NCBI GenBank assembly: GCA_036509895.1
Contig: DATCEV010000034.1
Coordinates: 13,437 to 77,436, forward strand
Length of the DNA: 64,000 nt
DNA from: Verrucomicrobiia bacterium
GTDB lineage: Bacteria > Verrucomicrobiota > Verrucomicrobiia > Limisphaerales > UBA11358
Reading direction: 5' to 3'
Positions 4,251 through 61,345 of the stretch are shown piece by piece; position 1 is the stretch's first letter, and every line of letters starts with the position of its first letter. Under the pieces are notes generated by a model that was not told the DNA's origin, did not search any database, and was given only the letters and a program-made list of their open reading frames with translations. Made by a program: the position numbers and the translations under genes.

Positions 4251-6551
4251 ATGAAAATCCGATGTTCCTGCGGCGCGAAGTATGAATTCGACGTCACGCC
4301 CGAAATGGCGCGCGAGCCGGTGAAATTTATTTGCCCGAATTGCGGCCTCGACTCGTCGGATCTCGTCAATGAACTGATCCGTGCCGAAATCGCGGAACAA
4401 TTTCCCGACGCAACTTCGCCGCCGCCAACGCCGGCGGTTTCGCGTTTGAAAATTTCGCGCGAAGAAAAAGTAATTGCTCCGCCGGAAACTGAATCCGTTG
4501 CCAACACTTGCCTGAAACATGGCGGCGCGCTGGCGACGGAAAAATGCGCCGTTTGCGGAAAACCGATTTGCCCCAAGTGCCTGGAACAGTTCGGCTTTTT
4601 TTGCTCGCCGTTTTGTCGGAGCAAAGCCGAGTCGCAAAACAAAAAAGCGCCGGTTTATGCCGGACAAAAATTTGCAGTCGAAGCGCGGTTCTGGCGCAAG
4701 GCGGGAATAATTTTTGGTTCGCTGGCGACCATTCTGGTTTTGGCCGTGGGTTTTTGGATTTGGTATGCGTGGTTTGGTTCGGTGCCGCACACTTATTTTT
4801 CCTTGCGCTTCGCCGACGATGATCGCGCTTACGCCGGCGGCACGCGACTTGTCGGCCCGGACCAAATTGTTTTTTTGCACGGCGGCACCTTGGCGCGTTA
4901 CGATCTCAAGACGAAAAAACCAGTCTGGTCGCAGGAGCTTGTCACGAAGGAACAGGTTGCCGCCATTGTCCAAATGGAAAATGAACAGCGCGCGCGCGAA
5001 AATGAATCAGATGAATTCAGCAGCGTTCCGCCGCCGGGTTCGCTGGAACGCAAGGCGAAAATCGCGCTGCAAAGAACGCTTTCGCTGCACGTCTCCGGAC
5101 AAAACATCTGGGTCGCCGCGCCCGGCAAGCTGACGCATTACGATTGGGACAGCGGCAAAATTTTGCAGGAAATTCCGGTGCCGGAATTTGGCGATGAAAT
5201 TGTCGAGCGCGGCGATGAATTGCTTTTGGCCGGCGCGCAATCCGTCATCCACGTCAATTTGGCGAGCGGCCAGACGCGCGCGGAAAATTTTTCTGAAAGC
5301 GGCGCGGCAAATGTCGCAACTGCAAACAGAGAAAATTCTGCCGGCGCGTTGGCAGCGGCGAGCGCAAATGGCCAGCCGACCGACGCGCAAAAACTTGCGG
5401 CGCAGGCGCAGAATTTGAATTTGCCCGGCAGACTGGCGTTGCCCGCGCTGCTCGGCAATGTTTCCTACGAACAAAAAATTGAAGCGGCGCTCAAAGATGA
5501 CAATTCGCGCCCGCCGCCTTCGCCAAGCGCGAATTCATTTGCGCGCGCTGCTGAAAATCCAGTTTTGATTCCTGATGAAAACGGGTTTGTGCAATTTTCC
5601 ACGCGGCTGGTTCAAAAAAATATCGTCGCGCACGAAGCGATGCGCGCGCCGCCGCAAAAATCGGTGCTCAACGATCCTAATTTGAACGTTTCGCAAACCA
5701 CCGAAGCCGAAAATGAAACGTTGAATGAAATGCAGCGCAACAATGGCGGCGACAAAGTTTTGGAGGACGAAAGCGTTTATCAAGTCACGCTTCATCGCCC
5801 GGATGCGTCGGGCATTCCCGATTGGACGGGACAAGTGGTTGGCCCGCCGCAATTGTTCGTTTTGAAAACTGTGAATGTTCTGGCCGCCGGCAAAACTGTC
5901 ATCGTCTTCGATAAATCCAACAAGAAACTTTGGGAAACCGCGCTGACTTATCCGATTTCCAATCTCAATCCACAGGTTGGGGAAAATAAATCGCAATTCG
6001 GCGAAGGTCCGTGCGTGGAACACGGCGGCACGCTTTTCGTTTTTGACGAAGCAGTTTTGAGCGCGTTCGATTTGGCAAGCGGCAACGCGCGTTGGCGTTT
6101 GCCGACCATCGGCGTTGTCGGTCTTTTTTTTGACGGGGAAAATAATTTGTATGTCAATACGACCACCGGCAATCCCGATGACATCAAATATTCGCGGCAA
6201 ATTGACATCTCCAAAAACACGGACGACCTGCTCCTGAAAATTGACGCGCAAACTGGAAAAATTCTGTGGCGCGCCACGCCCGGCGGTTTCATCTCCTATG
6301 TGTCTGGAAATTTCATTTACGCGGTCCTGTCGTATGATCCCAATCCGACCGACCAGGAAGTTTTGAACGACACCTTGCAAGGATTGCAACGGCCGCCTTA
6401 CCTTCGCCTCACGCGCCTCAATCCAAAAAACGGGCGCGCGATCTGGCAATATGATCAGGCTCGCGCGCCGGTGGCCGTTCGGTTCAAAAAGAATTTCATC
6501 GAACTCGTCTTCAAAAAAGAAGTTCTGGTGCTGAAATATCTGTCGCTGTAA
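4251..6551 (+). CDS. Membrane-anchored protein: two N-terminal zinc-binding modules, one TM helix, PQQ/BamB-like beta-propeller repeats
   Basis: ATG at 4251 (MKIRCSCGAKYEFDV...FICPNCG). A second Cys cluster is CLKHGG...CAVCGKPICPKC...FCSPFC, and the TM helix is AGIIFGSLATILVLAVGFWIWYAWF. Repeated 'G-x-x-x-W' blades follow (KKPVWSQEL, KKLWETAL, GNARWRLP, GKILWRATPGG, GRAIWQYD). Confidence 0.65.
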   Translation: MKIRCSCGAKYEFDVTPEMAREPVKFICPNCGLDSSDLVNELIRAEIAEQFPDATSPPPTPAVSRLKISREEKVIAPPETESVANTCLKHGGALATEKCAVCGKPICPKCLEQFGFFCSPFCRSKAESQNKKAPVYAGQKFAVEARFWRKAGIIFGSLATILVLAVGFWIWYAWFGSVPHTYFSLRFADDDRAYAGGTRLVGPDQIVFLHGGTLARYDLKTKKPVWSQELVTKEQVAAIVQMENEQRARENESDEFSSVPPPGSLERKAKIALQRTLSLHVSGQNIWVAAPGKLTHYDWDSGKILQEIPVPEFGDEIVERGDELLLAGAQSVIHVNLASGQTRAENFSESGAANVATANRENSAGALAAASANGQPTDAQKLAAQAQNLNLPGRLALPALLGNVSYEQKIEAALKDDNSRPPPSPSANSFARAAENPVLIPDENGFVQFSTRLVQKNIVAHEAMRAPPQKSVLNDPNLNVSQTTEAENETLNEMQRNNGGDKVLEDESVYQVTLHRPDASGIPDWTGQVVGPPQLFVLKTVNVLAAGKTVIVFDKSNKKLWETALTYPISNLNPQVGENKSQFGEGPCVEHGGTLFVFDEAVLSAFDLASGNARWRLPTIGVVGLFFDGENNLYVNTTTGNPDDIKYSRQIDISKNTDDLLLKIDAQTGKILWRATPGGFISYVSGNFIYAVLSYDPNPTDQEVLNDTLQGLQRPPYLRLTRLNPKNGRAIWQYDQARAPVAVRFKKNFIELVFKKEVLVLKYLSL

Positions 6552-6638
6552 AAAGTTCTACTTTTTCATCCGGCAAAAAAAATCCCTCCGCATTTGTTCG
6601 GCAAATGCGTTGGATAAACAGCGGCAAAACTGCGGCAA

Positions 6639-6824
6639 TTACTGCGCCGCCGGTGTGTTCGTGTCGGGCATCGCCGGGACATTCGTCGTAGTCATGTCCG
6701 GGGAGTTCGTCGTGGGCGTTTCCGGCACGGTGCTGGAAGTGTCTGTGTCATTCTTGTTGCAACCTACGAAGGCGAAGGTGGAAACCAAAGCCAATAACAT
6801 AACCAGCGATAATTTAATTTTCAT
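6639..6824 (-). CDS. Small Thr/Pro-rich lipoprotein
   Basis: ORF 6639..6854, trimmed to MKIKLSLVMLLALVSTFAFVGCNKNDT. This is a signal peptide with lipobox FVGC. A hairpin (6589-6609) plus T-run on the minus strand follows the gene. Confidence 0.5.
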   Translation of the reverse strand: MKIKLSLVMLLALVSTFAFVGCNKNDTDTSSTVPETPTTNSPDMTTTNVPAMPDTNTPAAQ

Positions 6825-6863
6825 ACAAGGCGAACTTTGCCGCAACCCGCCCAAAATGCAAAT

Positions 6864-8948
6864 TTATTTAATTTCGGAAAAAAACGATTTTGCTTGCGCT
6901 CGCGCCTGCCGGATCAAATCCAAATCCTCCGTCAGATTTCCAAAACGCAATTTCATCGCGCCGCTTTGCTCGCGGCCCAGCAATTCACCCGGCCCGCGCA
7001 ATTTCAAATCCACTTCGGCAATTTTGAAACCGTCGTTCGTTTCTTCCAAAATTTTCAGACGTTCTCGCGCCTCAAGATTTTTCACATCAGAAATTAAAAT
7101 GCAAAAACTCTCATGCGCGCCGCGCCCGATGCGCCCGCGCAACTGGTGCAACTGCGCCAAACCAAACATTTCTGAATTTTCGACCAGCATGATCGTCGCG
7201 TTCGGCACGTCCACGCCGACCTCGATGAGCGAAGTCGAAAGTAAAATCTGGATTTTGTTCGCGCGAAAATCGGCCATCACATTTTCCTTTTCCGCAGATT
7301 TCAAACGCCCGTGCAAAAGCCCGACACGAAATGGCGCGAACAATTTTTTAAGATTTTCAAATTCCGTCGTCACGGCCTTCAATTCTTTCGCGCCCGAATT
7401 TTCCACGCGCGGATAAACGACGAATGCCTGCCTGCCGGCGGCGAGTTTTTCGCGGATGAATTCCAGAACCTTCGGCAATTTTTCCGTCGCACGGACGAAT
7501 GTTTTTATTTTTCCACGACCGCCGGGCATTTCTTCAATCGTCGAAACGTCCAAATCGCCGTAAAGCGTCAGGCCGAGCGTGCGCGGAATCGGCGTCGCCG
7601 TCATCACGAGCAGGTGCGGATAATTTCCCTTGCGAACCAATTGCTCGCGCTGCGCCACGCCAAACTTGTGCTGCTCGTCAATTATCACTAGGCCAAGGTT
7701 GGATAATTGAAAATTTTCCGTGAAAAGCGCGTGTGTGCCGACGGTCAAAGTTGAAGGTTGAAGGTTGAAAGTTGAAGGTTTGTCCAAGCGACGCATTCCT
7801 GATTTTTCAACCTTCAACTTGCAACTTTCAACTTGCAACGAAGCGTCCTTCCGGCTGCCCGTTTGCAACAGAACTTTGACGCCCAAAGGTTCAAACCACT
7901 TCACAAAATTACGATGGTGCTGTTCCGCCAGGATTTCCGTCGGCGCCATGAGGGCGACGTTGAATCCGCTTTCAATCGCCATCAATGCGCTGCAAGCCGC
8001 GACCGCCGTTTTACCGGAACCGACATCGCCTTGCAACAATCGCCGCATCGGATGCGCGCCGCTCATGTCCGCGCGGATTTCGCGGAGAACTTTCGTTTGC
8101 GATTCGGTCAACTTGAAACCGAGCCGCGTCAAAAACGGTCTCATCAAGCGATTGTCGCCGCTGCACGGCAGCGCTTTGGCGTTCGTTTCAAATTTTTTTC
8201 GTCGCGATTGAATTTGCATTTGCAGTGAAACAAATTCTTCGAGCGCCAATTCTTTCCGCGCAATTTCCACATCCGAAATTTCTGCGGGAAAATGAATCAT
8301 ACGAATTGCTTCGCTGGTTGAAAGTTGAAGGTTGAAAGTTGAAGGTTTTGTGAGATCAACCGCGCCGGTTTTTTTAACCTGCAACTTGCAACTTTCAACC
8401 TGCAACATATTCGATTCCAACGTTCTCCAAATCAGTCCGCGCAGCCAGCGTTGCGGCAAACCTTCCGTGAGTGGATAAATCGGCGCGATGCGGTTGATGT
8501 GAATGAAACTTTCTTCGCCGGGTTCGATGACTTCGGTTTCGGGATGGTCCATCGTGCGCGGCTTGGTTTCCTTCAATTTTCCGAAGACGAAAACTTCATC
8601 GCCCATCGCGAAATAATTTTCCATGAACGGCAGATTCCACCAGCGGCAATGCAGTCGCGCCGAGCCGTCGTCCAAAATGATTTCAAAAACAGATTTGTTG
8701 CCGCCGCGAAAACGCTTGAGGCCGAGCGCGACAATTTTTCCGCGCGCGGTGAACGGCTCGTCTTTGGTGAGTTCGGAGATTTTGCGGAAATGCCGGCGGT
8801 CTTCGTAACGCTTGGGCCGGTGCAGCAGCAGATCTTCAATTGTGAAAATTTCCAGCCGCGCGAGTTGCGCCGCGCGTTCCGCGCCGACGCCCCAAAGCGA
8901 AGCGACGGGATTTTTCAGCGGCGAAATTTTAGTTTCCGGCGGCGACAT
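6864..8948 (-). CDS. recG: ATP-dependent DNA helicase RecG (with two in-frame repeat-derived segments)
   Basis: ORF 6864..8990, trimmed to MSPPETKISPLK. Motifs present: GDVGSGKT, MAPTEILAEQH, IIDEQHKFG, VMTATPIPRTL, STSLIEVGVDVPNAT, QLHQLRGRIGRG. Confidence 0.9.
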   Translation of the reverse strand: MSPPETKISPLKNPVASLWGVGAERAAQLARLEIFTIEDLLLHRPKRYEDRRHFRKISELTKDEPFTARGKIVALGLKRFRGGNKSVFEIILDDGSARLHCRWWNLPFMENYFAMGDEVFVFGKLKETKPRTMDHPETEVIEPGEESFIHINRIAPIYPLTEGLPQRWLRGLIWRTLESNMLQVESCKLQVKKTGAVDLTKPSTFNLQLSTSEAIRMIHFPAEISDVEIARKELALEEFVSLQMQIQSRRKKFETNAKALPCSGDNRLMRPFLTRLGFKLTESQTKVLREIRADMSGAHPMRRLLQGDVGSGKTAVAACSALMAIESGFNVALMAPTEILAEQHHRNFVKWFEPLGVKVLLQTGSRKDASLQVESCKLKVEKSGMRRLDKPSTFNLQPSTLTVGTHALFTENFQLSNLGLVIIDEQHKFGVAQREQLVRKGNYPHLLVMTATPIPRTLGLTLYGDLDVSTIEEMPGGRGKIKTFVRATEKLPKVLEFIREKLAAGRQAFVVYPRVENSGAKELKAVTTEFENLKKLFAPFRVGLLHGRLKSAEKENVMADFRANKIQILLSTSLIEVGVDVPNATIMLVENSEMFGLAQLHQLRGRIGRGAHESFCILISDVKNLEARERLKILEETNDGFKIAEVDLKLRGPGELLGREQSGAMKLRFGNLTEDLDLIRQARAQAKSFFSEIK
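7746..7839. repeat. Heptamer-stem hairpin repeat, copy inside recG (in frame)
   Basis: A run of GTTGAAG/GTTGAAA heptamers (7749-7780), a spacer, then the imperfect reverse complement ttcaaccttcaacttgcaactttcaacttgcaa. Translated as LQVESCKLKVEKSGMRRLDKPSTFNLQPSTL. Confidence 0.85.
8316..8406. repeat. Heptamer-stem hairpin repeat, second copy inside recG (in frame, same orientation)
   Basis: ggttgaaagttgaaggttgaaagttgaagg ... aacctgcaacttgcaactttcaacctgcaac. Translated as LQVESCKLQVKKTGAVDLTKPSTFNLQLSTS. Confidence 0.85.
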
Positions 8949-9014
8949 CGCCCGCACGATACAAACCTGGCGGAAGAGAATCAAACGCAACCCGCTTTGT
9001 CGCGGAGCGACGAT

Positions 9015-9171
9015 TGGAAATTAGCCCGGCACATCGTGCCGGGTTTGTCGTTCAAAATGAAAAAACGTCCTGAAGGGACGGCGGAAATGTGATGACGGTT
9101 TCCGGCGTCCTTTCAGGACGAAAAATGGTTTTCCGTGATGAACCAGACACTTCGTGTCTGGCTAATTTCCA
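9015..9171. repeat. Nested palindromic element (outer stem enclosing several inner hairpins), intergenic
   Basis: Outer stem tggaaattagcc (9015-9026) / ggctaatttcca (9160-9171). Inner hairpins: cccggcacatcgtgccggg (9025-9043), cgtcctgaagggacg (9066-9080) paired with its inverted copy cgtcctttcaggacg (9106-9120), and ccagacacttcgtgtctgg (9143-9161). Confidence 0.8.
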
Positions 9172-9205
9172 GTTGTCCCTGCGGGACGAAACGCGCGCTC
9201 CGAAC

Positions 9206-9994
9206 TCAAGCGCGTTTTGGAGTCTTTCGATTTTGCGCCGGCATGAGCCAAGCGATAAGCGCAACGAGGATTGCCGGATAAAGCAAGCTCATCAAATTCA
9301 CCACAATAACCAAGTCCAATGATGGGCTGTTCGGATGACTTTCATATCGCAGTAAAGAATTTACCAGCAACAGAAGATAAAATGAAAAAAGCGTGGCGGA
9401 AATAAATAGAAACCGGCGGCGTGAATGGAAGAAAAATTGCGTCCATGAGAAACCTTTGTTTAACCGTCCGCGAGATAAAAGCCACGCGATTCCGAGCACT
9501 GGCAGCAAACTCAAGAAATTAAAAACCATTCTTGAGCTTGGACTGAACAACAAAGCGTAAAGATCAATATTTGATGGCAGTGGCAAATAAAACCGAACCC
9601 AATCAGGAAACGGAGAAACAGAATGATATTTATTTAGGAAATATGGCGTCGTGACAGTAGTTTGAAAAATAGCCCACGCAATTGATGAAATTCCCGACCA
9701 GAGACGAATTATGAGAAGAATTATTGCGGCCCAAAAAATTCGCTCGCGCCAGACCGTTGCTGGATTTGCTTTCACAAATTCTTCGACAAGCCGTTGCGGC
9801 TGGCCGACGCGTTTGCGCGCAAGCCAGAAAGATTCTTCGTCGTTCAAGTCGCGTTGCTGGAATCCGGCGATGGCGTCGCGCAAATGCGTTTCCAGTTCGC
9901 GCCGGTCGTCGGACGCGAGATTCGGTTGCACGGCGAGTTCGTTCCGCCAGTTTTCAACGGCGGCGTTCAGATCGAAACGGGTTTGATTTTCCAT
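9206..9994 (-). CDS. PadR-associated multi-pass membrane protein with N-terminal helical 'permease-prefix'-like domain
   Basis: ORF 9206..10027, trimmed to MENQTRFDLNAAVENWRNEL...ELETHLRDAIAGF. Several hydrophobic helices follow. The gene overlaps the end of the PadR gene. Confidence 0.6.
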   Translation of the reverse strand: MENQTRFDLNAAVENWRNELAVQPNLASDDRRELETHLRDAIAGFQQRDLNDEESFWLARKRVGQPQRLVEEFVKANPATVWRERIFWAAIILLIIRLWSGISSIAWAIFQTTVTTPYFLNKYHSVSPFPDWVRFYLPLPSNIDLYALLFSPSSRMVFNFLSLLPVLGIAWLLSRGRLNKGFSWTQFFFHSRRRFLFISATLFSFYLLLLVNSLLRYESHPNSPSLDLVIVVNLMSLLYPAILVALIAWLMPAQNRKTPKRA

Positions 9995-13065: not shown

Positions 13066-16000
13066 ATGACCAACAACCCAACACTGAAAACTAATGACCT
13101 CGGAAGCGCGCAAATTCAAATTTCCGCGCCGCCGAAACAGGGGCTTTACGACCCGCAATTCGAGCATGATGCCTGTGGCCTCGGTTTCGTCGTTCACATC
13201 AAAGGAAAAAAATCGCACCAGTTGGTCAGCGACGCGTTGAAAATTTTGGTGAACCTCGATCATCGCGGCGCGGTCGGGTGCGAACCGAACACGGGCGACG
13301 GCGCGGGCATTTTGATCCAGATCCCGCATGATTTTCTGGCTGCGCAAACGGCGAAGCTCGGTTTCAAACTTCCTGCTTTTGGCGAATACGGCGTCGGCAT
13401 GTTGTTTTTGCCAAAAGATTCCGCCGAACGCGAAGCGATCAAAAAAGAATTCGCCAAAATCGTTTCCGGCGAAGGCCAGAGCGTTCTGGGCTGGCGCGAC
13501 GTGCCGGTGGACAATTCCTCGCTCGGCAACGGCGCGAAAAATTCCGAGCCGTTCATGGCGCAGGTTTTTGTCGGCAAAAATTCTTCGCTGAAAGACGAAG
13601 CGGCCTTTGAAAGAAAACTGTTTGTCATCCGCAAGATCGCGGAGCAGAAAATCCGTTACGGCGGGAAAATTCCCGGCGGCAGATGGTTTTACGTTTCCAG
13701 CCTGTCGGCGCGCACGATCATTTACAAGGGCATGTTGATGTCCGAGCAGGTGGAAAAATATTACGCCGACCTCCGCGACGAAAGCGTGGTCACGGCGCTC
13801 GCGCTCGTGCATTCACGTTTCAGCACGAACACTTTTCCAAGCTGGGATCGCGCGCATCCAAATCGCTACATCGCGCACAACGGCGAAATCAACACGCTGC
13901 GCGGCAATGTAAATTGGATGCACGCGGCGCAGGCGAAGTTCAAATCAAAATTGTTCGGCGACGACATCAAAAAAATTGTTCCCGTCATCAACACGGACGG
14001 CAGCGACTCGGCGCAGTTCGACAATTGCGTGGAGCTTTTGACGCTGGCCGGTCGCGAATTGCCGCACGCGATGATGATGATGATTCCCGAGCCGTGGGAA
14101 AATCACGAAAGCATGGACGCCGAACGCCGCGCGTTTTACGAATTTCATTCGTGCCTGATGGAGCCGTGGGACGGCCCGGCTTCAATGGCGTTCACGGACG
14201 GAAAAATTATTGGCGCGTGCCTCGACCGAAATGGTTTGCGCCCGTCGCGTTATTATGTGACGAAAGATGATTTGGTTATCATGGCGTCGGAAGCGGGAGT
14301 TTTGCCCGTCGCGCCGGAACGCATTTTGCAGAAAGGGCGTTTGCAGCCGGGCCGGATGTTTCTCGTGGACATCGCGCAAGGGCGAATTGTCGCGGACGAA
14401 GAACTTAAGAAAAAATATGCGAGCGCGGAGCCGTATCAAAAATGGCTGGATGAACATCACGTGCTTTTGGAAAATTTGCCGGAGCCGTCGCAGGCAACGC
14501 AACCGGATCATCGCAAAATTTTGCAGCGACAACAGGCGTTCGGCTACACGTTTGAGGATTTGCGTTTGATTGTCGCGCCGATGGGCAAGGACGGCGTGCA
14601 ACCGCTTGGTTCGATGGGCACGGACACGCCGCTCGCGGTTTTGTCGAATAAGCCGCAGTTGCTTTACAATTATTTCAAACAACTGTTTGCGCAGGTGACG
14701 AATCCGCCGATTGATCCGATTCGCGAAGAAATTATTACTTCGACGGAAACGATGGTCGGCGCGCGCGGCGGTTTGCTTCAGCCGACGCCAGAAAGTTGTG
14801 CGCTGATAAAATTGAAACATCCGATTCTCACGAATGAGGAATTGGAAAAATTGCGGCACGTGGACGGCGGCGCGTTCAAATGCGTGACGCTGCCGATTTT
14901 GTTTGAGGGGAGCGCGCGCGTCTCGCGTGCAGATTCGGGCGTCGCGCCCGAATCTCTTCGTGCGCCGGACGGCGTGACCAGTGGTTTTCGGCGCGACGCC
15001 GAAAACCACACGCGGGACGCGTGTGCTCCCCAAAAAAATCTCGCAGCCGCTTTGGAAAAATTATTTTCCGAAGCGGACAAAGCCATTGCCGGCGGCGTGA
15101 ACATTTTGCTGTTGTCGGATCGCGGCATTTCGCCCGAACTCGCGCCGATTCCCGCGTTGCTCGCGGTTTCCGGTTTGCATCATCATTTGATTCGCAAAGG
15201 CACGCGCGGCAAAGTCGGCCTCGTGCTTGAATCCGGCGAACCACGCGAGGTGCATCATTTCGCGCTGCTCATCGGTTACGGTTGCAGCGCCATCAATCCG
15301 TATCTGGCGTTCGCGACGTTGGACGATTTGATTCAACAAGGTTTGCTCGTCAACACGGATCACAAAACGGCGCAGAAAAAATTCATCAAAGCCGTCGTCA
15401 AAGGCGTCGTCAAAACGATGGCCAAGATGGGCATCTCGACGATTCAAAGTTATCGCGGCGCGCAAATTTTTGAAGCCATCGGCCTCAACAGCGAAATCGT
15501 GGAAAAGTATTTTACCTGGACGCCGACGCGCATTGAAGGCGTCGGCCTCGACGTGATTGCGGAAGAAGCACTCGCGCGACATCGTCACGCGTTTCCAGAT
15601 CGTCCGGTCAATGGAGTTTTGGACGCGGGCGGCCAATATCAATGGCGCGACGGCGGCGAATTTCATTTGTTCAATCCGCAGACGATTCACAAATTACAAA
15701 ACGCGTGCCGCACGAATAACGAAAAAATTTATCGCGAGTATGCCGAGTTGATTAACAATCAGGCAAAAAATCTTTGCACGCTGCGCGGCTTGCTCGAATT
15801 CAAATTCGCGGAAAATCCCATTCCGATTGATGAAGTTGAATCCGTCGAAGAAATCGTGAAGCGTTTCAAAACCGGCGCGATGAGTTACGGTTCGATTTCC
15901 AAAGAAGCGCACGAAGCGCTGGCGATTGCGATGAATCGCATCGGCGGAAAATCCAACACCGGCGAAGGCGGCGAAGACCCGGCGCGTTACGTTCTCGAAC

Positions 16001-17820
16001 CAAACGGCGACTCGAAAAATTCCGCGATCAAACAAGTCGCGTCGGGACGTTTCGGCGTGACGAGTTATTATTTGACGCAGGCACGCGAGTTGCAAATCAA
16101 AATGGCGCAGGGCGCGAAACCCGGCGAAGGCGGAGAATTGCCCGGCAAAAAAGTTTATCCGCCGATTGCAAAAGTTCGCGGCACGACGGCGGGCGTCGGT
16201 CTGATTTCGCCGCCGCCGCATCACGACATTTATTCCATCGAAGATTTGGCGGAGTTGATTCACGATTTGAAAAATTCAAATCGCGACGCGCGCATCAGCG
16301 TAAAACTTGTGGCCGAAGTCGGCGTCGGCACCGTCGCGGCGGGCGTTGCCAAAGCGCACGCGGATGTGGTTTTGATTTCCGGTCACGACGGCGGAACCGG
16401 CGCGTCGCCGCTTTCATCCATCAAACACGCGGGCGGTCCGTGGGAATTGGGTTTGGCCGAAACGCACCAGACGCTCGTGCTGAATAATTTGCGCAGCCGC
16501 ATTTATGTCGAAGCTGACGGACAATTGAAAACTGGACGCGACGTTGCCGTCGCCGCGTTGCTCGGCGCGGAAGAATTTGGTTTTGCGACCGCGCCGCTCG
16601 TCGCGGTCGGCTGCATCATGATGCGCGTCTGCCATTTGAACACGTGTCCCGTCGGCATCGCGACGCAAGACCCGCGGTTGCGCGCGCGGTTCGCGGGCGG
16701 CGCGGACAACGTCGTGAATTTCATGCGCTTCGTCGCGGGCGAACTTCGCGAAATCATGGCTCGGCTCGGCTTCCGCAAATTGGAAGAAATGGTCGGGCGC
16801 ACGGATAAATTGATTCCGTGGCACGCGATTGAACATTGGAAAGCCAACGGACTCGACCTCACGCCGATTTTGCATCAGCCGGAAATGGGCGCGGACGTTG
16901 GACGTTTCCGTTCGCAAGATCAGGATCACGGCTTGGAAAAATCTTTGGATGTGACGAAACTTTTGGACATTTGCAAACCGGCGATTGAGCGCGGCGAAAA
17001 AGTGAAAGCCGAACTGCCGATTCGCAACGTCCATCGCGTTGTCGGCACAATCACCGGCAGCGAAATCACGAAAAAGCACGGCCCGAACGGATTGCCGGAA
17101 GACACCGTGTGGTTGAAATTCAACGGCAGCGCCGGGCAAAGTTTCGGCGCGTTCATTCCGCGCGGCATGACGCTCGAACTGGAAGGCGATGCGAACGATT
17201 ATTTCGGCAAAGGCTTGAGCGGCGGGAAAATAATTGTTTATCCGCCGCGCAATTCCACGTTCGTCGCCGAGGACAATATCATTATCGGCAACGTGGCGCT
17301 TTACGGCGCGACGGCGGGCGAAATGTTTGTATGCGGCATGGCGGGCGAACGCTTTGCTGTTCGCAATTCTGGCGTTGATGCGGTCGTCGAAGCCATCGGC
17401 GATCACGGCTGCGAATACATGACCGGCGGTCGCGTGATTGTTTTGGGAAAGACCGGACGCAATTTTGCCGCGGGCATGAGCGGCGGCATCGCGTATGTTT
17501 TGGATGAAGCCGGCGATTTCAAAAATCATTGCAACATGGAATTGGTCGGCCTCGAAAAACTTTCGGACGCGGACGAAATCGAAGAAGTCTGGAAATTGAT
17601 CCAGCGTCATCAAACTTACACGCAAAGCGAACGCGCCGCGAAAATTCTCGGCGACTGGAAAAATTTCATTCCGAAATTCATCAAAGTTTTGCCAAAAGAT
17701 TACGCGCGCGTTTTGCAATCGTTGAAAAAAGCGCAATCGCAAGGCTTGAGCGGTGACGACGCAATCATGGTCGCGTTCGAGGAAAACATCCGCGACGTCG
17801 CTCGCGTCGGCGGCGGATAA
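13066..17820 (+). CDS. gltB: Glutamate synthase large subunit (with in-frame palindromic insertion)
   Basis: A 1584-aa ORF. It has the N-terminal amidotransferase start ...HDACGLGF, an FMN/Fe-S central domain (...GEGGEDP..., ...[16 protein letters not shown]...) and the C-terminal GXGXG domain. Confidence 0.95.
14907..15031. repeat. Nested GC-rich palindromic element inside gltB (in frame)
   Basis: Outer stem ggggagcgcgcgcgtctcgcgtg / cacgcgggacgcgtgtgctcccc. Inner hairpins are gattcgggcgtcgcgcccgaatc (14932-14954) and ggttttcggcgcgacgccgaaaacc (14983-15007). Translated as [42 protein letters not shown]. Confidence 0.85.
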
Positions 17821-17822
17821 GC

Positions 17823-17968
17823 AATCCGCAGATTACGCAGATGAACGCAGATTTTCAGAAATAAACTGAACTGAATGAATTTAAGAAAATTCAAAACCGC
17901 AATTATGACCGTTGCGAAAGCAAAAAAAAAACGCCTTTAATCTGCGTTCATCTGTGAAATTTGCGGAC
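17823..17968. repeat. Long inverted repeat immediately downstream of the gltB stop (ATCTGCG-type family)
   Basis: Arms are aatccgcagattacgcagatgaacgcagatt (17823-17853) and aatctgcgttcatctgtgaaatttgcggac (17939-17968). They are about 30 bp with a few mismatches, around an 85-nt loop. Confidence 0.75.
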
Positions 17969-18413: not shown

Positions 18414-19970
18414 TTGGGCAAGCCAACCGGATTTTTAGATTTTAATCGCGAACTGCCGCTGGATCGTTCGGCTATCGAACGCATCCGCGACTGGAACGAA
18501 TTTCATCTGCACATGTCAGACGCCGACCTGAAAAAGCAGGGCGCGCGCTGCATGGATTGCGGCATTCCGTTCTGCCAGCACGGCCAGCTTGTCAGCGGCA
18601 TGGCCAGCGGCTGCCCGATTCACAATCTCATTCCCGAATGGAACGATCTGGTGTATCGCGGACTTTGGAAGGAAGCGCTCGAACGTCTTCACAAGACGAA
18701 TAATTTTCCCGAATTCACCGGGCGCGTTTGTCCCGCGCCATGCGAAGGCTCATGCGTTTTGGGAATCAACGCGCCTCCGGTCACGATCAAGAATATAGAA
18801 CAGGCCATCGCCGATCACGGCTGGGCGAACAATTGGATCGTTCCCGAAATTCCGAAAAAGCGGACGGGGAAAAAAGTCGCGGTCATCGGTTCCGGTCCCG
18901 CCGGACTTTCTGCCGCCGCGCAATTAAATCGCGCTGGCCATCTCGTCACGGTTTTCGAGCGCGCGGATCGCCCCGGCGGTTTGCTCATGTATGGCATTCC
19001 CAACATGAAGCTCGACAAAAACGAAGTTGTGCTGCGGCGAATTAAAGTGCTCGAAGCGGAAGGAATTCAATTTGTTTGCAATACGGAAGTAGTGGCACAG
19101 GCGTCTCGCCTGTGTGATAAGTCACAACAAGAAACGCCAACTCACAGGCAAGATGCCTGTGCCACTAAAAATTATCCGGCGGAAAAATTATTGAAAGAAT
19201 TTGACGCTGTGATTTTGGCGACGGGCGCGACCAAACCGCGCGATTTATCCGTTCCCGGACGCGAATTGAAAGGCATTCACTTTGCGATGGATTTTCTCAC
19301 CGCGAACACGAAAACAATTTTGGACAATCACAAAAACGGAAATTTTATTGACGCAACCGGCAAGGATGTGATCGTCATCGGCGGCGGCGATACCGGAACG
19401 GATTGCGTCGGCACTTCGATGCGGCATGGCTGCAAAAGTTTGGTGCAAGCGGAAATTTTGCCGATGCCGCCGCCTGAACGCGCGAAGGATAATCCGTGGC
19501 CCGAATGGCCGAAGGTTTATAAAATGGATTACGGTCAGGAAGAAGCCGCCGCGAAATTCGGCGCCGATCCGCGCACTTATTTGACGACCGCGACGAAATT
19601 TGAGGGCGACGCGCATGATCATGTCAAAGCCGTTCATCTCGTGCAAATCGAATGGACGCAAAACGACAAAGGCCAGTTCATTCCGAAACACGTTCCCGGA
19701 ACGGAAAAAGTTTTGCCCGCACAACTCGTTTTGCTGGCGATGGGTTTTCTCGGACCGGAACAGCCGTTGCTTGAAGCGCTCGGCATCGAACGCGACGCGC
19801 GCTCAAACGCAAAAGCCGAATTTGAAAAATACGCGACAAATCTTCCGAACGTTTTTGCCTGCGGCGATTGTCGTCGCGGCCAAAGTTTGGTCGTCTGGGC
19901 ATTCAACGAAGGTCGCGGCGCGGCGCGCGAGTGCGACCGTTTCCTCATGGGCGCAACGGATTTGCCGTGA
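18414..19970 (+). CDS. gltD: Glutamate synthase small subunit (NADPH), TTG start, with in-frame palindromic insertion
   Basis: [15 protein letters not shown]..., the Fe-S Cys motifs ([18 protein letters not shown]), and the dinucleotide folds [14 protein letters not shown] and [13 protein letters not shown]. Confidence 0.95.
19091..19166. repeat. GTGGCACAGGC-type palindromic element inside gltD (in frame)
   Basis: Outer stem agtggcacaggc / gcctgtgccact. Inner hairpins are cacaggcgtctcgcctgtg and cacaggcaagatgcctgtg. Translated as [25 protein letters not shown]. Confidence 0.85.
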
Positions 19971-20415: not shown

Positions 20416-21636
20416 ATGCCGGATTTCTGTGTCACGCCTGTCGCCAGCCTTTACGTCCACGTTCCTTTTTGCGCGCAGAAATGCGCGTATTGCGCGTTTT
20501 ATTCCGAAGCGTCCAGCGGCGAACTGGTCAACCGTTTTGTCAATGCGCTCATCCGGGAAATGGAAATCGTCGCGGACGATCTCAAAACGAAAACCATTTT
20601 CTTTGGCGGCGGAACCCCGTCGCTCTTGAATCTGCGGCAGTGGGAACAGATTCTCCGCACAATGGAAAAACTGGATCTGCTCGGCGCGGAAGAATTCACC
20701 GTCGAATGCAATCCGGCGACCGTTTCGGCGGACAAGGCAAAATTGTTCCGCGACTTCGGCATCAACCGCATTTCCATGGGCGTGCAATCGCTTGACGAAA
20801 AATTGCTCGACCGGCTCGGACGGATTCATTCGCGCGAAATGGTTTTCAAGTCGTTCGATATTTTGCGCGCCGCCGGTTTTGAAAACATCAATCTGGATTT
20901 GATGTTTGCCATTCCCAGCCAGACGATGGAAATCTGGCGCGACACTTTGAACGAGGCGATGGCGATGCAAAGCGAGCATTTGTCCAGCTACGAAGTCATT
21001 TACGAAGACGACACGCCGCTTTATGAACAACTCAAGGCCGGTGAATTTGCCGTGGATGAAAATCTTGCCTGCGAAATGTATGAGGAATTGATTTCAACCG
21101 CGACGCGCGCCGGTTTTCAGCAATATGAAATCGCGAATTTTGCAAAACAGTCCAAAGTCCAAAGTCCAAAACCCAAAGTCAATGGGACCGAAATAACTTT
21201 GGACATTGGACATTGGACGTTGGACATTCCGTTTTTCGCGTGCAAACACAACGTCATTTACTGGCGCGGCGGAAATTTTTATGGATTGGGGCCGAGCGCG
21301 ACGGGTTACGTTCGCGGCGCGCGGACAAAAAATTGGGCGAACACCCAACTCTATTGCGAGCAATTGGAAAAAGGAAAACGCGCGATTGAATCCCGCGAAG
21401 AATTATCACCGCTGCGACGCGCCGGAGAAATCGCCGCGTTCGGTTTGCGGATGAACGCGGGCTGGCCGTTCATAGAATTCAAACGCGCAACAGATTTTGA
21501 TTTGCGGAATGAATGGTCGTCGGAAATGGACCAACTCGCCGAACGCGGCTGGGCTTCACGCGATTCAGAAAAATTTCAACTCACACATCAAGGACTGCGC
21601 TTCGCAGATTCGGCGGCGGAACTTTTTTTACGTTAA
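20416..21636 (+). CDS. hemW: Radical SAM haem chaperone HemW / HemN-like (with in-frame repeat insertion)
   Basis: LYVHVPFCAQKCAYCAF (the CxxxCxxC radical-SAM cluster), GGGTPS, and HNVIYW near the HemN_C region. Confidence 0.85.
   Translation: MPDFCVTPVASLYVHVPFCAQKCAYCAFYSEASSGELVNRFVNALIREMEIVADDLKTKTIFFGGGTPSLLNLRQWEQILRTMEKLDLLGAEEFTVECNPATVSADKAKLFRDFGINRISMGVQSLDEKLLDRLGRIHSREMVFKSFDILRAAGFENINLDLMFAIPSQTMEIWRDTLNEAMAMQSEHLSSYEVIYEDDTPLYEQLKAGEFAVDENLACEMYEELISTATRAGFQQYEIANFAKQSKVQSPKPKVNGTEITLDIGHWTLDIPFFACKHNVIYWRGGNFYGLGPSATGYVRGARTKNWANTQLYCEQLEKGKRAIESREELSPLRRAGEIAAFGLRMNAGWPFIEFKRATDFDLRNEWSSEMDQLAERGWASRDSEKFQLTHQGLRFADSAAELFLR
21150..21225. repeat. Heptamer-stem hairpin repeat (GTCCAAA type) inside hemW (in frame)
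   Basis: gtccaaagtccaaagtccaaaacccaaagtc (21150-21180), a 16-nt loop, then ctttggacattggacattggacgttggac (21197-21225). Translated as SKVQSPKPKVNGTEITLDIGHWTLD. Confidence 0.85.
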
Positions 21637-46263: not shown

Positions 46264-46292
46264 TTAAAATTTTTCGGGAGAATTTTTTTCTC

Positions 46293-46320
46293 TCAACTTT
46301 CAACCATCAACTCTCAACTT
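46293..46320. repeat. Four tandem TCAACNN heptamers (single arm of the heptamer-stem repeat family) in the rplI 5' region
   Basis: tcaactt tcaacca tcaactc tcaactt. No complementary arm lies nearby. Confidence 0.7.
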
Positions 46321-55940: not shown

Positions 55941-56372
55941 ATGTTCAAAAAAATTTTAGTTGCGCTTGAAAACAGTCCGGCGGACGAAACGATGTTGCCG
56001 CAAATCGCCGCACTGGCAAAAAAACTTGCCTCGGAACTTTTATTTTTGCACGTCGCCGACGGCTGGGTCGCGCGCAATTTCAATCAACTCAAGCTTGCCG
56101 AGTCCGAAGAAATGAAAAGCGACCGCGAGTATTTGGAAAAAGCCGCCGACAAAATTCGCGCCGAAGGAATTTCAGTTTCCACCATGCTCGCGCTCGGCAG
56201 TCCGCCGACCGAAATTTTGAAAGTCGCCGATGCTGAACGGTGCAGTTTGATCGCGATGACCAGCCACGGCCATCGTTTGTTCGGCGACATTTTTCACGGC
56301 AGCACCATCAACGAAGTCCGTCACAACACGCACATTCCAATTCTCCTCGTGCGCGCGAAAAAAATAAAGTAG
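55941..56372 (+). CDS. Universal stress protein (UspA family)
   Basis: MFKKILVALENSPADE...LIAMTSHGHRLFGDIFHGSTINEVRHNTHIPILLV. Confidence 0.85.
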   Translation: MFKKILVALENSPADETMLPQIAALAKKLASELLFLHVADGWVARNFNQLKLAESEEMKSDREYLEKAADKIRAEGISVSTMLALGSPPTEILKVADAERCSLIAMTSHGHRLFGDIFHGSTINEVRHNTHIPILLVRAKKIK

Positions 56373-56431
56373 CGCAGGCATCTTGCCTGCGTTTTTATTT
56401 AAAAATTTCGCAGGCTGGATGCCTGCGCTAC
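56369..56431. terminator. Palindromic element forming two convergent terminator hairpins; it contains both flanking stop codons
   Basis: gTAGcgcaggcatcttgcctgcg-tttttatttaaaaattt-cgcaggctggatgcctgcgCTAc. Hairpin 56373-56391 plus a T-run serves usp. Hairpin 56409-56427 plus a T-run on the minus strand serves the VOC gene. Confidence 0.55.
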
Positions 56432-56823
56432 TTTAATTGAGAATCTTTTGGCCGTTCCACCAGATGCAACAAATTTCCTTCGCAATCTTCAAAAAATAAA
56501 ACGCGCCCGCCGCCAGCAGCCGGACGAATTTCTTCCGAAAATTTTAGGCCGCGTTTTTCCAATTCACTTTTCGCCCCGTCCAACGAATCCACGCGCAACG
56601 CGATGTGCCGAAAACCGGCGAGCTTGTTGTTGCCGCGATTTTCCGGCGCGCCGTCCGCCGCGTAAATTTCAAACCAGCCGCCGCCCGGCAACGCAATCAA
56701 ACACGTTGGCGGATTCTGTCCGTTATTAAAAATTTCACGCGCGTCCAATTTTTTTTCATACCAATTTTTCAGTGCAACCGGATTTGGCGACGGAATCGCA
56801 ATGTGTTCAATGGAAATATTCAT
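56428..56823 (-). CDS. VOC-family (glyoxalase/bleomycin-resistance fold) protein
   Basis: ORF trimmed to MNISIEHIAIPSPNPVALKNWY...GFRHIALRVDSLD...FFEDCEGNLLHLVE. Confidence 0.8.
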   Translation of the reverse strand: MNISIEHIAIPSPNPVALKNWYEKKLDAREIFNNGQNPPTCLIALPGGGWFEIYAADGAPENRGNNKLAGFRHIALRVDSLDGAKSELEKRGLKFSEEIRPAAGGGRVLFFEDCEGNLLHLVERPKDSQLK

Positions 56824-60083: not shown

Positions 60084-61325
60084 TCATTGAATGTCTGTTT
60101 GTGTCAAATGTTGCATTTCAATTCCTGCAAGAATGAATGGTCCAATGCCTTTCAAATCATTTTTCACAATCGGCTCGCTGACATAATAATCAAAACTGCC
60201 GTCGCGCGAACGCCCTTTTGAATTTGTAAAACCGAGTCCGGCGACGGAACAACAATTCGTCAGCGACCAATTGTTTCCGCTGTCCGCAACAATTAAATTT
60301 TTTATGATTCCGGCAAAACCCTTTTCTGCAAATGCAGAATAATTTTCCGGCAAATAATTTTTATTCACGCCTTTGGCCAGCGCATAAACAAACATCGCCG
60401 ACGCCGTCGCTTCCAAATAATTTCCTTTGCGACTGCCCGCGTCCATGACCTGCCACCAAAGTCCGGTTTTTGCGTCCTGAAATTTTATGGCGCTCGCACA
60501 AAGTTTCTGAAAGCGCGAAAGGATTTCCGCGCGCGCCGGATGATTTGTCGGAAAAAAATCGAGCGCGTCCACGAGCGCCATTGCATACCAGCCGTCCGCG
60601 CGCCCCCAAAAATTTGACGAGCAGCCCGTTAGTGGATTTGCCCACGGCTGAATTTTTGCCGCGTCCCAGGCGTGAAAATACAAACCGGTTTTGGTGTCGT
60701 AACAATGTTCGTCAATCAAGTGAAATTGTTTCGCCACGTCGTCAAAATCATTTGTCTCGCCAAAATTTTTTGCGTATTCCGCATAAAAAATGTCGCCCAT
60801 ATAAATTCCATCGAGCCACATTTGATTTGTGTAACGCTGTTTGTGCCAGAAGCCGCCGTCAAAAGTTCGCGGCTGGGAATTCAATTGCGCGCGCAAAATC
60901 GTCGCGGCGTTTTTATACTTTTCGTCGTGCGTGATTTGCCAAAGCGCGAGAATTGTTTTGCCGGAATTCAGCGCGTCGAGTTGAAATTCTTGCGGCTTGT
61001 AAGTTTGAATTTTTCCATCCGGCGAAATGAACGAACCAATTACTTTTTCAGAAAAATTTTCGCAACACGCGTCGTGCGTTTGCTCGCTCAATTTCAAAAG
61101 CGAAAGCGTGAACAAACCGACCGTGTAATCCCATTTTGTTTTACCGCCCGGTTTCCAAACGAGCGAATCATCGAGCCGCGAAATTTCCGAATTTGCAAGG
61201 CGTTGCGACCATTCGAGCGGCGTCGCGCCGGAAAATTTTTGCGGCGCAGCAAATGACGGAAAAGGCAAAAAGTAAAAGGGAAAAAGTAAAAGATTGAAAG
61301 CGACGCCAGTGAATTTTTTTTTCAT
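60084..61325 (-). CDS. GH105/GH88-family unsaturated rhamnogalacturonyl/glucuronyl hydrolase
   Basis: A signal peptide, then MWLDGIYMG, FWGRADGWYAMALVD and GLWWQVMD, typical of the YteR/YesR family. Confidence 0.8.
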   Translation of the reverse strand: MKKKFTGVAFNLLLFPFYFLPFPSFAAPQKFSGATPLEWSQRLANSEISRLDDSLVWKPGGKTKWDYTVGLFTLSLLKLSEQTHDACCENFSEKVIGSFISPDGKIQTYKPQEFQLDALNSGKTILALWQITHDEKYKNAATILRAQLNSQPRTFDGGFWHKQRYTNQMWLDGIYMGDIFYAEYAKNFGETNDFDDVAKQFHLIDEHCYDTKTGLYFHAWDAAKIQPWANPLTGCSSNFWGRADGWYAMALVDALDFFPTNHPARAEILSRFQKLCASAIKFQDAKTGLWWQVMDAGSRKGNYLEATASAMFVYALAKGVNKNYLPENYSAFAEKGFAGIIKNLIVADSGNNWSLTNCCSVAGLGFTNSKGRSRDGSFDYYVSEPIVKNDLKGIGPFILAGIEMQHLTQTDIQ

Positions 61326-61345
61326 TTTGCCTTTTAGTTTTTAAT

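Follow-up and report, generated by a model that had tools for sequence, protein, structure and literature searches.

Tandem-heptamer hairpin repeats lie in frame at two loop positions of a verrucomicrobial recG gene

The DNA stretch analysed here, referred to as the window, comprises 64,000 nucleotides from a Verrucomicrobiia bacterium of the order Limisphaerales (GenBank assembly GCA_036509895.1, contig DATCEV010000034.1, positions 13,437 to 77,436), taken from a short-read metagenome assembly. On its minus strand it carries a recG gene (6864–8990) in which two segments consist of hairpin repeats whose stems are built from tandem heptanucleotides. The 708-aa open reading frame (ORF) reached the NCBIfam RecG equivalog cut-offs and could be aligned over its full length with the RecG structures solved for Thermotoga maritima (1GM5, E 1e-144) and Escherichia coli (9WM0, E 1e-135); the database gene call begins at residue 15, at about position 8948. 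Pfam placed a wedge domain at residues 34–191 and DEAD/RecA-like domain 1 at residues 298–470, and the helicase motifs GSGKT, DEQH, TATPIPRT and QLRGRIGRG, quoted in a preliminary description of this DNA, were all found intact. Comparison with the recG genes of six relatives, both repeat sites being excluded, gave dN/dS values of 0.11–0.22, and a second public contig of 42 kb was found to carry DNA identical to window positions 5864–9948. The gene is thus intact, under purifying selection and predicted to be functional; its unbroken frame, complete set of helicase motifs and low dN/dS argue against the dead pseudogene that would have refuted the preliminary description.

The first repeat, site A (8313–8406, minus strand), covers approximately residues 196–226 of the product (LQVESCKLQVKKTGAVDLTKPSTFNLQLSTS), starting five residues past the wedge domain and ahead of the conserved IHFP motif. 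Its arms (8406–8373 and 8347–8317) enclose a 25-nt loop (8372–8348). The second repeat, site B (7743–7839, minus strand), covers approximately residues 384–415 (LQVESCKLKVEKSGMRRLDKPSTFNLQPSTLT) within RecA-like domain 1, between TGSRK and VGTHAL. On the coding strand its 5' arm of GTTGCAA/GTTGAAA units (7839–7806) is followed by the loop (7805–7781) and a 3' arm of CCTTCAA/CTTTCAA units (7780–7743); read on the plus strand, the same segment appears as a GTTGAAG/GTTGAAA array (7750–7780), a 25-nt loop and a TTCAAC/TTGCAAC array (7806–7839). The two arms of site B are 87% complementary. Each arm holds 4.4–5.0 heptamer copies arranged head to tail, with GTTGAAR/GTTGCAA units in recG, and the common layout of the two segments agrees with the earlier account. 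Both are predicted to be translated as peptides of about 31 aa within the recG frame. These peptides had been called near-identical, which holds for the parts encoded by the arms; the loop-encoded parts (TGAVDLT and SGMRRLD) are unrelated.

Related repeats were found outside recG, as had been claimed. A third hairpin of the GTTGAAR type (1332–1409; arms 1332–1354 and 1389–1409, with an unrelated, GC-rich loop of 34 nt) is intergenic, flanked on one side by the stop of a DUF7560 gene (1420) and on the other by the start of a TPR/YfiO-like lipoprotein gene (1306), two minus-strand genes; no intrinsic terminator was called at this hairpin. A single array of the related heptamers CTCTCAA/CTTTCAA/CCATCAA, which has no inverted partner, is located just upstream of rplI (46328) at 46290–46319. 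The pattern GTTGAARGTTGAARG, allowing at most two mismatches, matched the window 20 times, against 0.51 matches expected from shuffled sequences (largest number observed, 3). Folding the hairpins as RNA or DNA gave z-scores of -3.4 to -5.6, with 0–2 of 200 shuffles folding as well. The three GTTGAAR copies of the window have their arms in common and unrelated loop DNA, the loop similarity not being significant, and a search of the whole window against Rfam returned no family at its gathering score. The repeat is therefore dispersed in that related copies occur outside recG, but it is not the fixed sequence implied by the earlier description since the arms alone are common within the window.

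The sites were compared with those of relatives belonging to Verrucomicrobia subdivision 3/Limisphaerales. A protein search provided 120 RecG sequences (74–83% identity, 651–720 aa, labelled Verrucomicrobiae or Limisphaerales) and a genome scan provided 48 loci of the same group with their DNA, about 160 RecGs overall; site B could be read in 43 of the loci. The comparison bears first on the reading frame. Three successive GTTGAAR units put TGA into all three frames, a stop codon that is removed on the coding strand by the GTTGCAA variants. Only one of the six frames is stop-free at site B and two at site A, and the frame used is the open one that both share. The common orientation and frame, noted in the preliminary description, are therefore forced by survival of a stop-codon filter and give no evidence for directed insertion. 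Throughout the relatives the site B segment is open and in frame (43/43 loci and 120/120 database RecGs) despite lengths ranging from 45 to 111 nt, and none of the approximately 160 sequences was found to be frameshifted at the repeat. Separately, the recG frame is broken away from the repeats in three loci on contigs of MFD-named metagenome-assembled genomes (MAGs; L035, L042 and L043), L042 for example having a local frameshift at site A; we suspect assembly indel errors rather than biology.

Alignment with a distant set made of 15 outgroup RecGs and those of T. maritima and E. coli left net gaps of roughly 10 aa (site A) and 16 aa (site B). Both segments are thus lineage-specific and do not align through distant orthologues without gaps. 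At site A the distant proteins have a conserved LPxxl motif, at site B a conserved eRxxi...G..di helix; the window protein has neither. Specifically, the common site A allele of the relatives is KFETQIAEPKPAPDLKLFPTRAN (approximately 23 aa, 69 nt), which can be aligned with E. coli and other RecGs and is gone in the window, while the native site B helix of other bacteria is missing from all Limisphaerales RecGs, with repeat-encoded sequence standing in its place. The segments thus overwrite a native loop and a native helix rather than simply interrupt the protein, and of the in-frame interruption first described, the frame holds while a clean insertion does not, native residues being missing at both sites. 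The sites correspond to the linker that follows the wedge domain (site A) and to the stretch between helicase motif Ia and GTHAL (site B).

Across the order, the variable segment at site B has fixed boundaries, TGS-(R/K)K and (L/I)(F/T)-IGTHAL in the protein and CGGAAA ... ATCGGCAC in the DNA, between which nearly always lie tandem heptamers whose unit varies between alleles. At least nine different heptamer units were found there among the approximately 160 RecGs, as arrays or as hairpins. The units forming hairpins were GTTGCAA/GTTGAAA, AGTGGCG/AGTGACA, GCAGATG, GGAAGAT/GGAGGAT, GAAGTGM, GAGCAAG, GTCGAGR (-65 kcal/mol) and GGAAGCT. In about 40 sequences site B instead holds the single array (AGTCCAA)x4, and further alleles consist of non-complementary pairs of arrays (ACATCCA with CGCACTC or CATCACG), of chimeric arms or, in L004, of four perfect units, (GTCCAAA)x4. 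Site B is free of repeats in two Verrucomicrobiales that are more distant (52% identity). Alleles at site A are empty, or hold GTAG...CTAC REPIN-like hairpins of several families (-48 to -61 kcal/mol) or GTTGCAG/GTTGAAR heptamer hairpins. The empty allele (in L008 and L026, for example) contains a short GC-rich inverted repeat, GCGCGCCGG ... CCGGCGCGC (-22 to -29 kcal/mol), so that this site may itself be a small hairpin. Judged by these alleles, both recG positions are hot spots for heptamer arrays and site A for REPIN-like hairpins too.

Comparable sites were found in other conserved genes. In the window, hemW (20416–21636) contains an AGTCCAA...TTGGACA heptamer hairpin (21147–21225, plus strand) past its radical SAM domain, which reads in frame as QSKVQSPKPKVNGTEITLDIGHWTLD and has the same unit as the single array common at recG site B. 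This one site, examined in 120 HemW homologues, is empty or is occupied by the AGTCCAA hairpin, other heptamer arrays, REP-like inserts or an LSPSDGERG-type repeat. The Mfd gene of a Baikal Pedosphaera MAG (L030, 303–3935) carries two heptamer hairpins and two single arrays, all in frame, and its CGCACTC/GAATGCG units are also present at recG site B of L030. Overall, period-7 hairpins numbered 27 across 693 kb of Limisphaerales loci, compared with 3 across 600 kb of outgroup loci, many of the site B hairpins being orthologous so that the counts are not independent; the neighbouring periods 5, 6 and 8–11 yielded 0–8 hairpins.

When RecGs were clustered using a simple average-linkage tree of 611 columns outside both sites, the heptamer type at site B was not clade-coherent, and the states of sites A and B combined freely. 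Because allele types did not follow the RecG tree, recG was tested for recombination. Nucleotides 1–480 of the window gene are 92–95% identical to L001, L004, L017 and L042 and 66–68% identical to L015 and L034. Past approximately nucleotide 500 the identity to the former group drops to 72–86%, and beyond the first 480 nucleotides the gene is just 72–86% identical to any relative. The best matches immediately upstream of site B are L015 and L034 (85%), the only loci besides the window with GTTGAAR hairpins at both sites. This mosaic structure argues for homologous recombination moving alleles between lineages, which would account for a large part of the apparent turnover with no need for many separate insertions.

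Whole hairpins are also copied, at least occasionally, between the two sites. In both L015 (p=0.0005) and L034 (p=0.0025) the site A hairpin resembles the site B hairpin in its loop as well as in its arms, and the site B loops of L015 and L034 are homologous (p=0.002). GTTGAAR units occur at site B only where site A has them too (the window, P0072, L015 and L034), a co-occurrence which suggests copying from site A to site B over approximately 580 nt. Flip-flop inversion of the loops, considered as a source of the difference between the window loops and those of L015 and L034, was unsupported (p ~0.06–0.3). Heptamer units are shared in 14.7% of within-genome pairs versus 6.8% of between-genome pairs, a difference that is inflated by orthologous sites and not decisive. 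Within L030 and L041, the units CGCACTC and GAGGATG recur.

The class extends well beyond this order. GTTGAAA-type arrays, defined by three YTTCAAC units, were found in at least 120 metagenome contigs which, among the matches listed, span GC contents of 0.30–0.68 and many environments. Among these same matches, 23 of the 106 arrays that could be judged belong to a heptamer hairpin, most of these hairpins lie outside long ORFs, and the contigs also hold hairpins of unrelated heptamers. The array thus seems to come first, with the hairpin as a form often derived from it, and the tandem-heptamer hairpin class is, on these counts, probably widespread in bacteria and frequent in Limisphaerales. Its arms are strongly polar: of the 31 hairpins in the Limisphaerales set, 27 have the purine-rich arm 5' of the loop and 2 have it on the other side, while the 46 of the metagenome set, among the matches listed, divide into 38 and 2 in the same way. 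Since this polarity reads the same on both strands, neither gene orientation nor the search pattern is its cause. Units also recur at unrelated sites in different genomes, AGTCCAA being present in hemW of the window and in recG of relatives.

Based on these observations, we propose, with a probability of roughly 60%, that the two segments are passenger tandem-heptamer hairpin repeats of an STRR-like class, located at two permissive and mutation-prone loop positions of a helicase under purifying selection. Replication slippage in a 7-nt register would create and alter the heptamer arrays, around one fifth of which would gain an inverted copy to become a hairpin, probably by intrastrand template switching that keeps the arms alike. 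Whole hairpins would sometimes be copied between sites, as seen for sites A and B in two relatives, and alleles would pass between lineages via homologous recombination, in line with the recG mosaic. Within genes, the surviving copies are those that fall in permissive loops and in a stop-free frame.

Several points weigh against this proposal. Slippage and fold-back copying are steps which we infer rather than observe, and neutrality is argued from the variety of alleles. Data from the window's own genome amount to 64 kb, within which copy number and the presence of a mobilising gene had to be judged. AlphaFold2, run on 57 close homologues (mean pLDDT 49.9), gave a low-confidence model that draws site B as a coil between two strands and is too poor for mapping surface exposure. 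Lastly, the near-universal arm polarity, together with the recurrence of units at unrelated sites and genomes, hints at a more specific, polar and possibly enzymatic process, which would not be expected from simple slippage.

An alternative that we regard as possible but unlikely is a non-autonomous mobile element of defined sequence (MITE-, REPIN- or RPE-like), mobilised by a RAYT or IS200/IS605-type transposase and inserted twice into recG. The three copies and the related array within 64 kb would fit such an element, as would the likeness of the site A and B hairpins, loops included, in L015 and L034, the somewhat higher recurrence of units within genomes and the arm polarity, which suits a polar enzymatic process. 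The GTAG REPIN-like elements that coexist in the window and at site A of relatives' recG genes make a hairpin-targeting single-stranded DNA transposase plausible in this lineage. However, the copies in the window are alike in their heptamer arms alone, a single site takes at least nine units, in some alleles as one array or as arrays that are not complementary, and native sequence is replaced rather than interrupted. No GTAG/CTAC tag, conserved tetranucleotide or flank motif, or target duplication was detected at the 31 oriented hairpins, nor any terminal inverted repeat beyond the arms of the heptamer hairpins. Likewise, neither target duplication nor conserved termini were found at the fixed site B boundaries in 43 loci, a related IS element not having been sought genome-wide, and the 20 window ORFs scanned included no Y1/RAYT transposase.

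Rather doubtful, in our view, is an undescribed polar, hairpin-directed process, be it an enzyme or a reaction at the replication fork, that writes or swaps heptamer hairpins at fixed positions including the recG, mfd and hemW loops. It may act in Limisphaerales and perhaps in many other bacteria, with rapidly changing protein loops as the result. Such a process would be favoured over plain slippage by the purine-rich arm coming first, the recurrence of units, the copying of hairpins between sites A and B and the replacement of native sequence between fixed boundaries.

A purely local origin, in which slippage and palindrome-correcting template switching act in place with no copying between sites, is harder still to sustain. 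It would account for the constancy of the site B boundaries whatever the unit and for the chimeric or intermediate arms (L021, L041 and L027, for example) and single-arm alleles. It also agrees with reports, summarised in two articles (PMC4679880, PMC4692102), that in many bacteria heptanucleotides outnumber all other long simple repeats, and with the polymerase-slippage hypothesis given there. It does not explain why sites A and B of L015 and L034 are alike in loops as well as arms, why identical units lie at unrelated loci or why GTTGAAR is found at site B only together with GTTGAAR at site A (the window, P0072, L015 and L034).

We consider it very unlikely that the hairpins or arrays are functional, whether as a regulatory mRNA or DNA structure (pausing, processing or attenuation), as a useful peptide loop or as a phase-variation switch of recG. 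Retention of a site B repeat in nearly all Limisphaerales RecGs speaks for a function, as does the existence of perfect four-unit alleles such as that of L004, which should slip readily, and repair genes recur as hosts (recG, Mfd and the repair genes in PMC3733652). No sense-strand wobble bias was found, however, the stem mismatches being 27 A.C versus 11 G.U, and folding is better for the antisense than for the mRNA strand. Alleles with a hairpin, with a single arm, with non-complementary arrays and, at site A, with no insert exist side by side, and the peptides encoded by different alleles differ completely. As for phase variation, the window arrays are imperfect and the approximately 160 sequences include no repeat-frameshifted allele. 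Overall, the comparison gave no sign that hairpin or peptide serves RecG. Finally, an assembly artefact or a dead recG pseudogene, suggested by the short-read metagenome source and by the error-prone assembly of hairpins and tandem repeats, is close to refuted by the identical second contig, by equivalent in-frame structures in dozens of independent assemblies, including contigs of 0.5–0.7 Mb, and by the intact ORF and motifs with dN/dS of 0.11–0.22.

The window contains further repeats, some of which had been counted together with the recG hairpins. The preliminary description listed six hairpin-repeat copies inside genes: the two in recG and that in hemW are heptameric, the latter with a different unit, but those in gltD and gltB are of other kinds. 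The gltD-like ORF (18414–19970) holds a GTAG...CTAC REPIN-like doublet at 19090–19167 (GTAGTGGCACAGGCGTCTCGCCTGTG ... CACAGGCAAGATGCCTGTGCCACTA), in frame within its Pyr_redox_2 domain, and a second doublet is intergenic at 56362–56438 (GTAGCGCAGGCATCTTGCCTGCG ... CGCAGGCTGGATGCCTGCGCTAC); these GTAG REPIN-like doublets are a class apart from the heptamer hairpins. In the 1584-aa ORF at 13066–17820, the gltB of the earlier description, positions 14902–15036 form an in-frame, GC-rich, non-heptameric inverted repeat with 47-nt arms that are 79% complementary; RARSDAPYQ-type peptides like that of this insert occupy recG site A in relatives. Just past the same ORF, at 17825–17967, lies a CGCAGAT-containing inverted repeat (TCCGCAGATTACGCAGATGAACGCAGATT / AATCTGCGTTCATCTGTGAAATTTGCGGA) with an 85-nt A/T-rich spacer, to which TRF assigned period 10. 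An A-rich heptamer/14-mer hairpin (AAAAGGC/AAAAAGT) at 61256–61335 is located downstream of an SDR gene and overlaps the 5' end of a GH88 ORF (60084–61325, minus strand). It covers approximately the first 23 codons, the minus strand reading KGKMKKKFTGVAFNLLLFPFYFLPFP, and a repeat arm may thus supply part of an N-terminus that resembles a signal peptide.

Should the proposal of passenger heptamer hairpins prove true, translated palindromic repeats would come to include, besides the Rickettsia palindromic elements (RPEs) and GTAG REPs, the tandem-heptamer hairpins of a soil lineage that is abundant and little studied. Loop positions of core repair and metabolic enzymes would be recurrent landing or generation sites with many alleles shuffled by recombination, and the alleles would show, by natural example, where RecG tolerates insertions. 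Annotators and builders of family models would be warned of repeat-derived low-complexity peptides such as KSKVQSPKSKV, EWRVASDK and STFNLQPSTL. The arm polarity and the multi-allelic hot spots would, moreover, offer handles on the old question of why 7-base repeats are abundant in bacteria and how they originate.

Among known systems, RPEs, which the preliminary description named as precedent, are a fair analogy. Di Nocera et al. (2013, PMC3733652) describe REPs translated inside genes of several species and equate some with RPEs; intragenic GTAG REPs are most numerous in the verrucomicrobium Opitutus terrae, and the authors report genes with two inserts as well as a preference for genes of replication and repair. 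Like the recG hairpins, RPEs and intragenic REPs are hairpin repeats with intergenic copies and with in-frame copies in genes whose proteins are functional, and their inserts encode about 20–30 aa, as those in recG do. Double inserts per gene occur in both, and replication and repair genes are frequent hosts, as here. In relatives, recG site A holds GTAG...CTAC doublets of exactly the intragenic-REP kind. Unlike RPEs and REPs, the stems described here are tandem 7-nt arrays and not a unique palindrome, there is no GTAG/CGTC tag (31 oriented hairpins) and no conserved full-length consensus, the loops being different, and many different units alternate at one orthologous site. REPINs are inverted doublets mobilised by RAYT transposases (Bertels and Rainey 2011, PMC3116915). 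Like the heptamer hairpins, they form a long hairpin with a spacer and are non-autonomous and present in many copies; they are, however, defined by GTAG-tagged REPs and a flanked RAYT gene, neither of which was found for the heptamer hairpins (31 hairpins; 20 window ORFs scanned).

Heptanucleotide simple repeats form the second known system. TAACTGA arrays have been reported in Beggiatoaceae, Cyanobacteria and Bacteroidetes (PMC4679880) and GGGAATC arrays in Xanthomonas (PMC4692102); among the known heptamer arrays a few lie inside ORFs, in the stop-free orientation only, and a few form inverted pairs. The slippage origin is a polymerase-footprint idea of Mrazek and colleagues, in the form summarised in the same two articles. 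The preliminary description knew of no account for this type of genome, but intragenic REPs are on record for the phylum in O. terrae (PMC3733652), and heptamer arrays inside ORFs have been described too (PMC4679880). As in recG, the repeats of this system are tandem 7-nt units, typically in 2–6 copies and in several families, and orthologous sites vary in length and sequence between relatives. In the Limisphaerales material, likewise, several distinct heptamer families were found and period 7 was favoured over neighbouring periods. The repeats are mostly intergenic, some inverted pairs being able to form stem-loops. Whereas the reported arrays are mostly intergenic direct arrays in other phyla, complete hairpins are found here inside conserved housekeeping enzymes, at loop positions fixed across a whole order, with multiple alleles and a strong arm polarity.

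Cyanobacterial STRR heptamer repeats were reportedly described by Mazel et al. in 1990; in the strict sense STRR belong to heterocyst-forming cyanobacteria, whereas the hosts here are Verrucomicrobia subdivision 3/Limisphaerales. Vioque is said to have reported in 1997 that heterocyst-forming cyanobacteria carry STRR sequences within their RNase P RNA gene. There, as in the present case, a conserved gene, in that instance an essential one, reportedly tolerates heptamer arrays at a single position where the structure is permissive; the difference is that the arrays extend a helix of an RNA gene, whereas recG is a protein gene with frame and stop constraints. Elhai et al. reportedly showed in 2008 that small dispersed repeats of Nostoc are nested in tandem-heptamer hairpins, including in conserved regions; unlike in Nostoc, no nested 21–27-nt element was recognised in the loops here. 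In the literature we found no description of complete tandem-heptamer hairpins translated inside conserved enzymes, of loop positions fixed across an order with many alternative units, of sites shared between heptamer hairpins and REPINs, or of arm polarity. Translated palindromic repeats and heptamer repeats are each already known, and the heptamer hairpins in recG are a variant of these.

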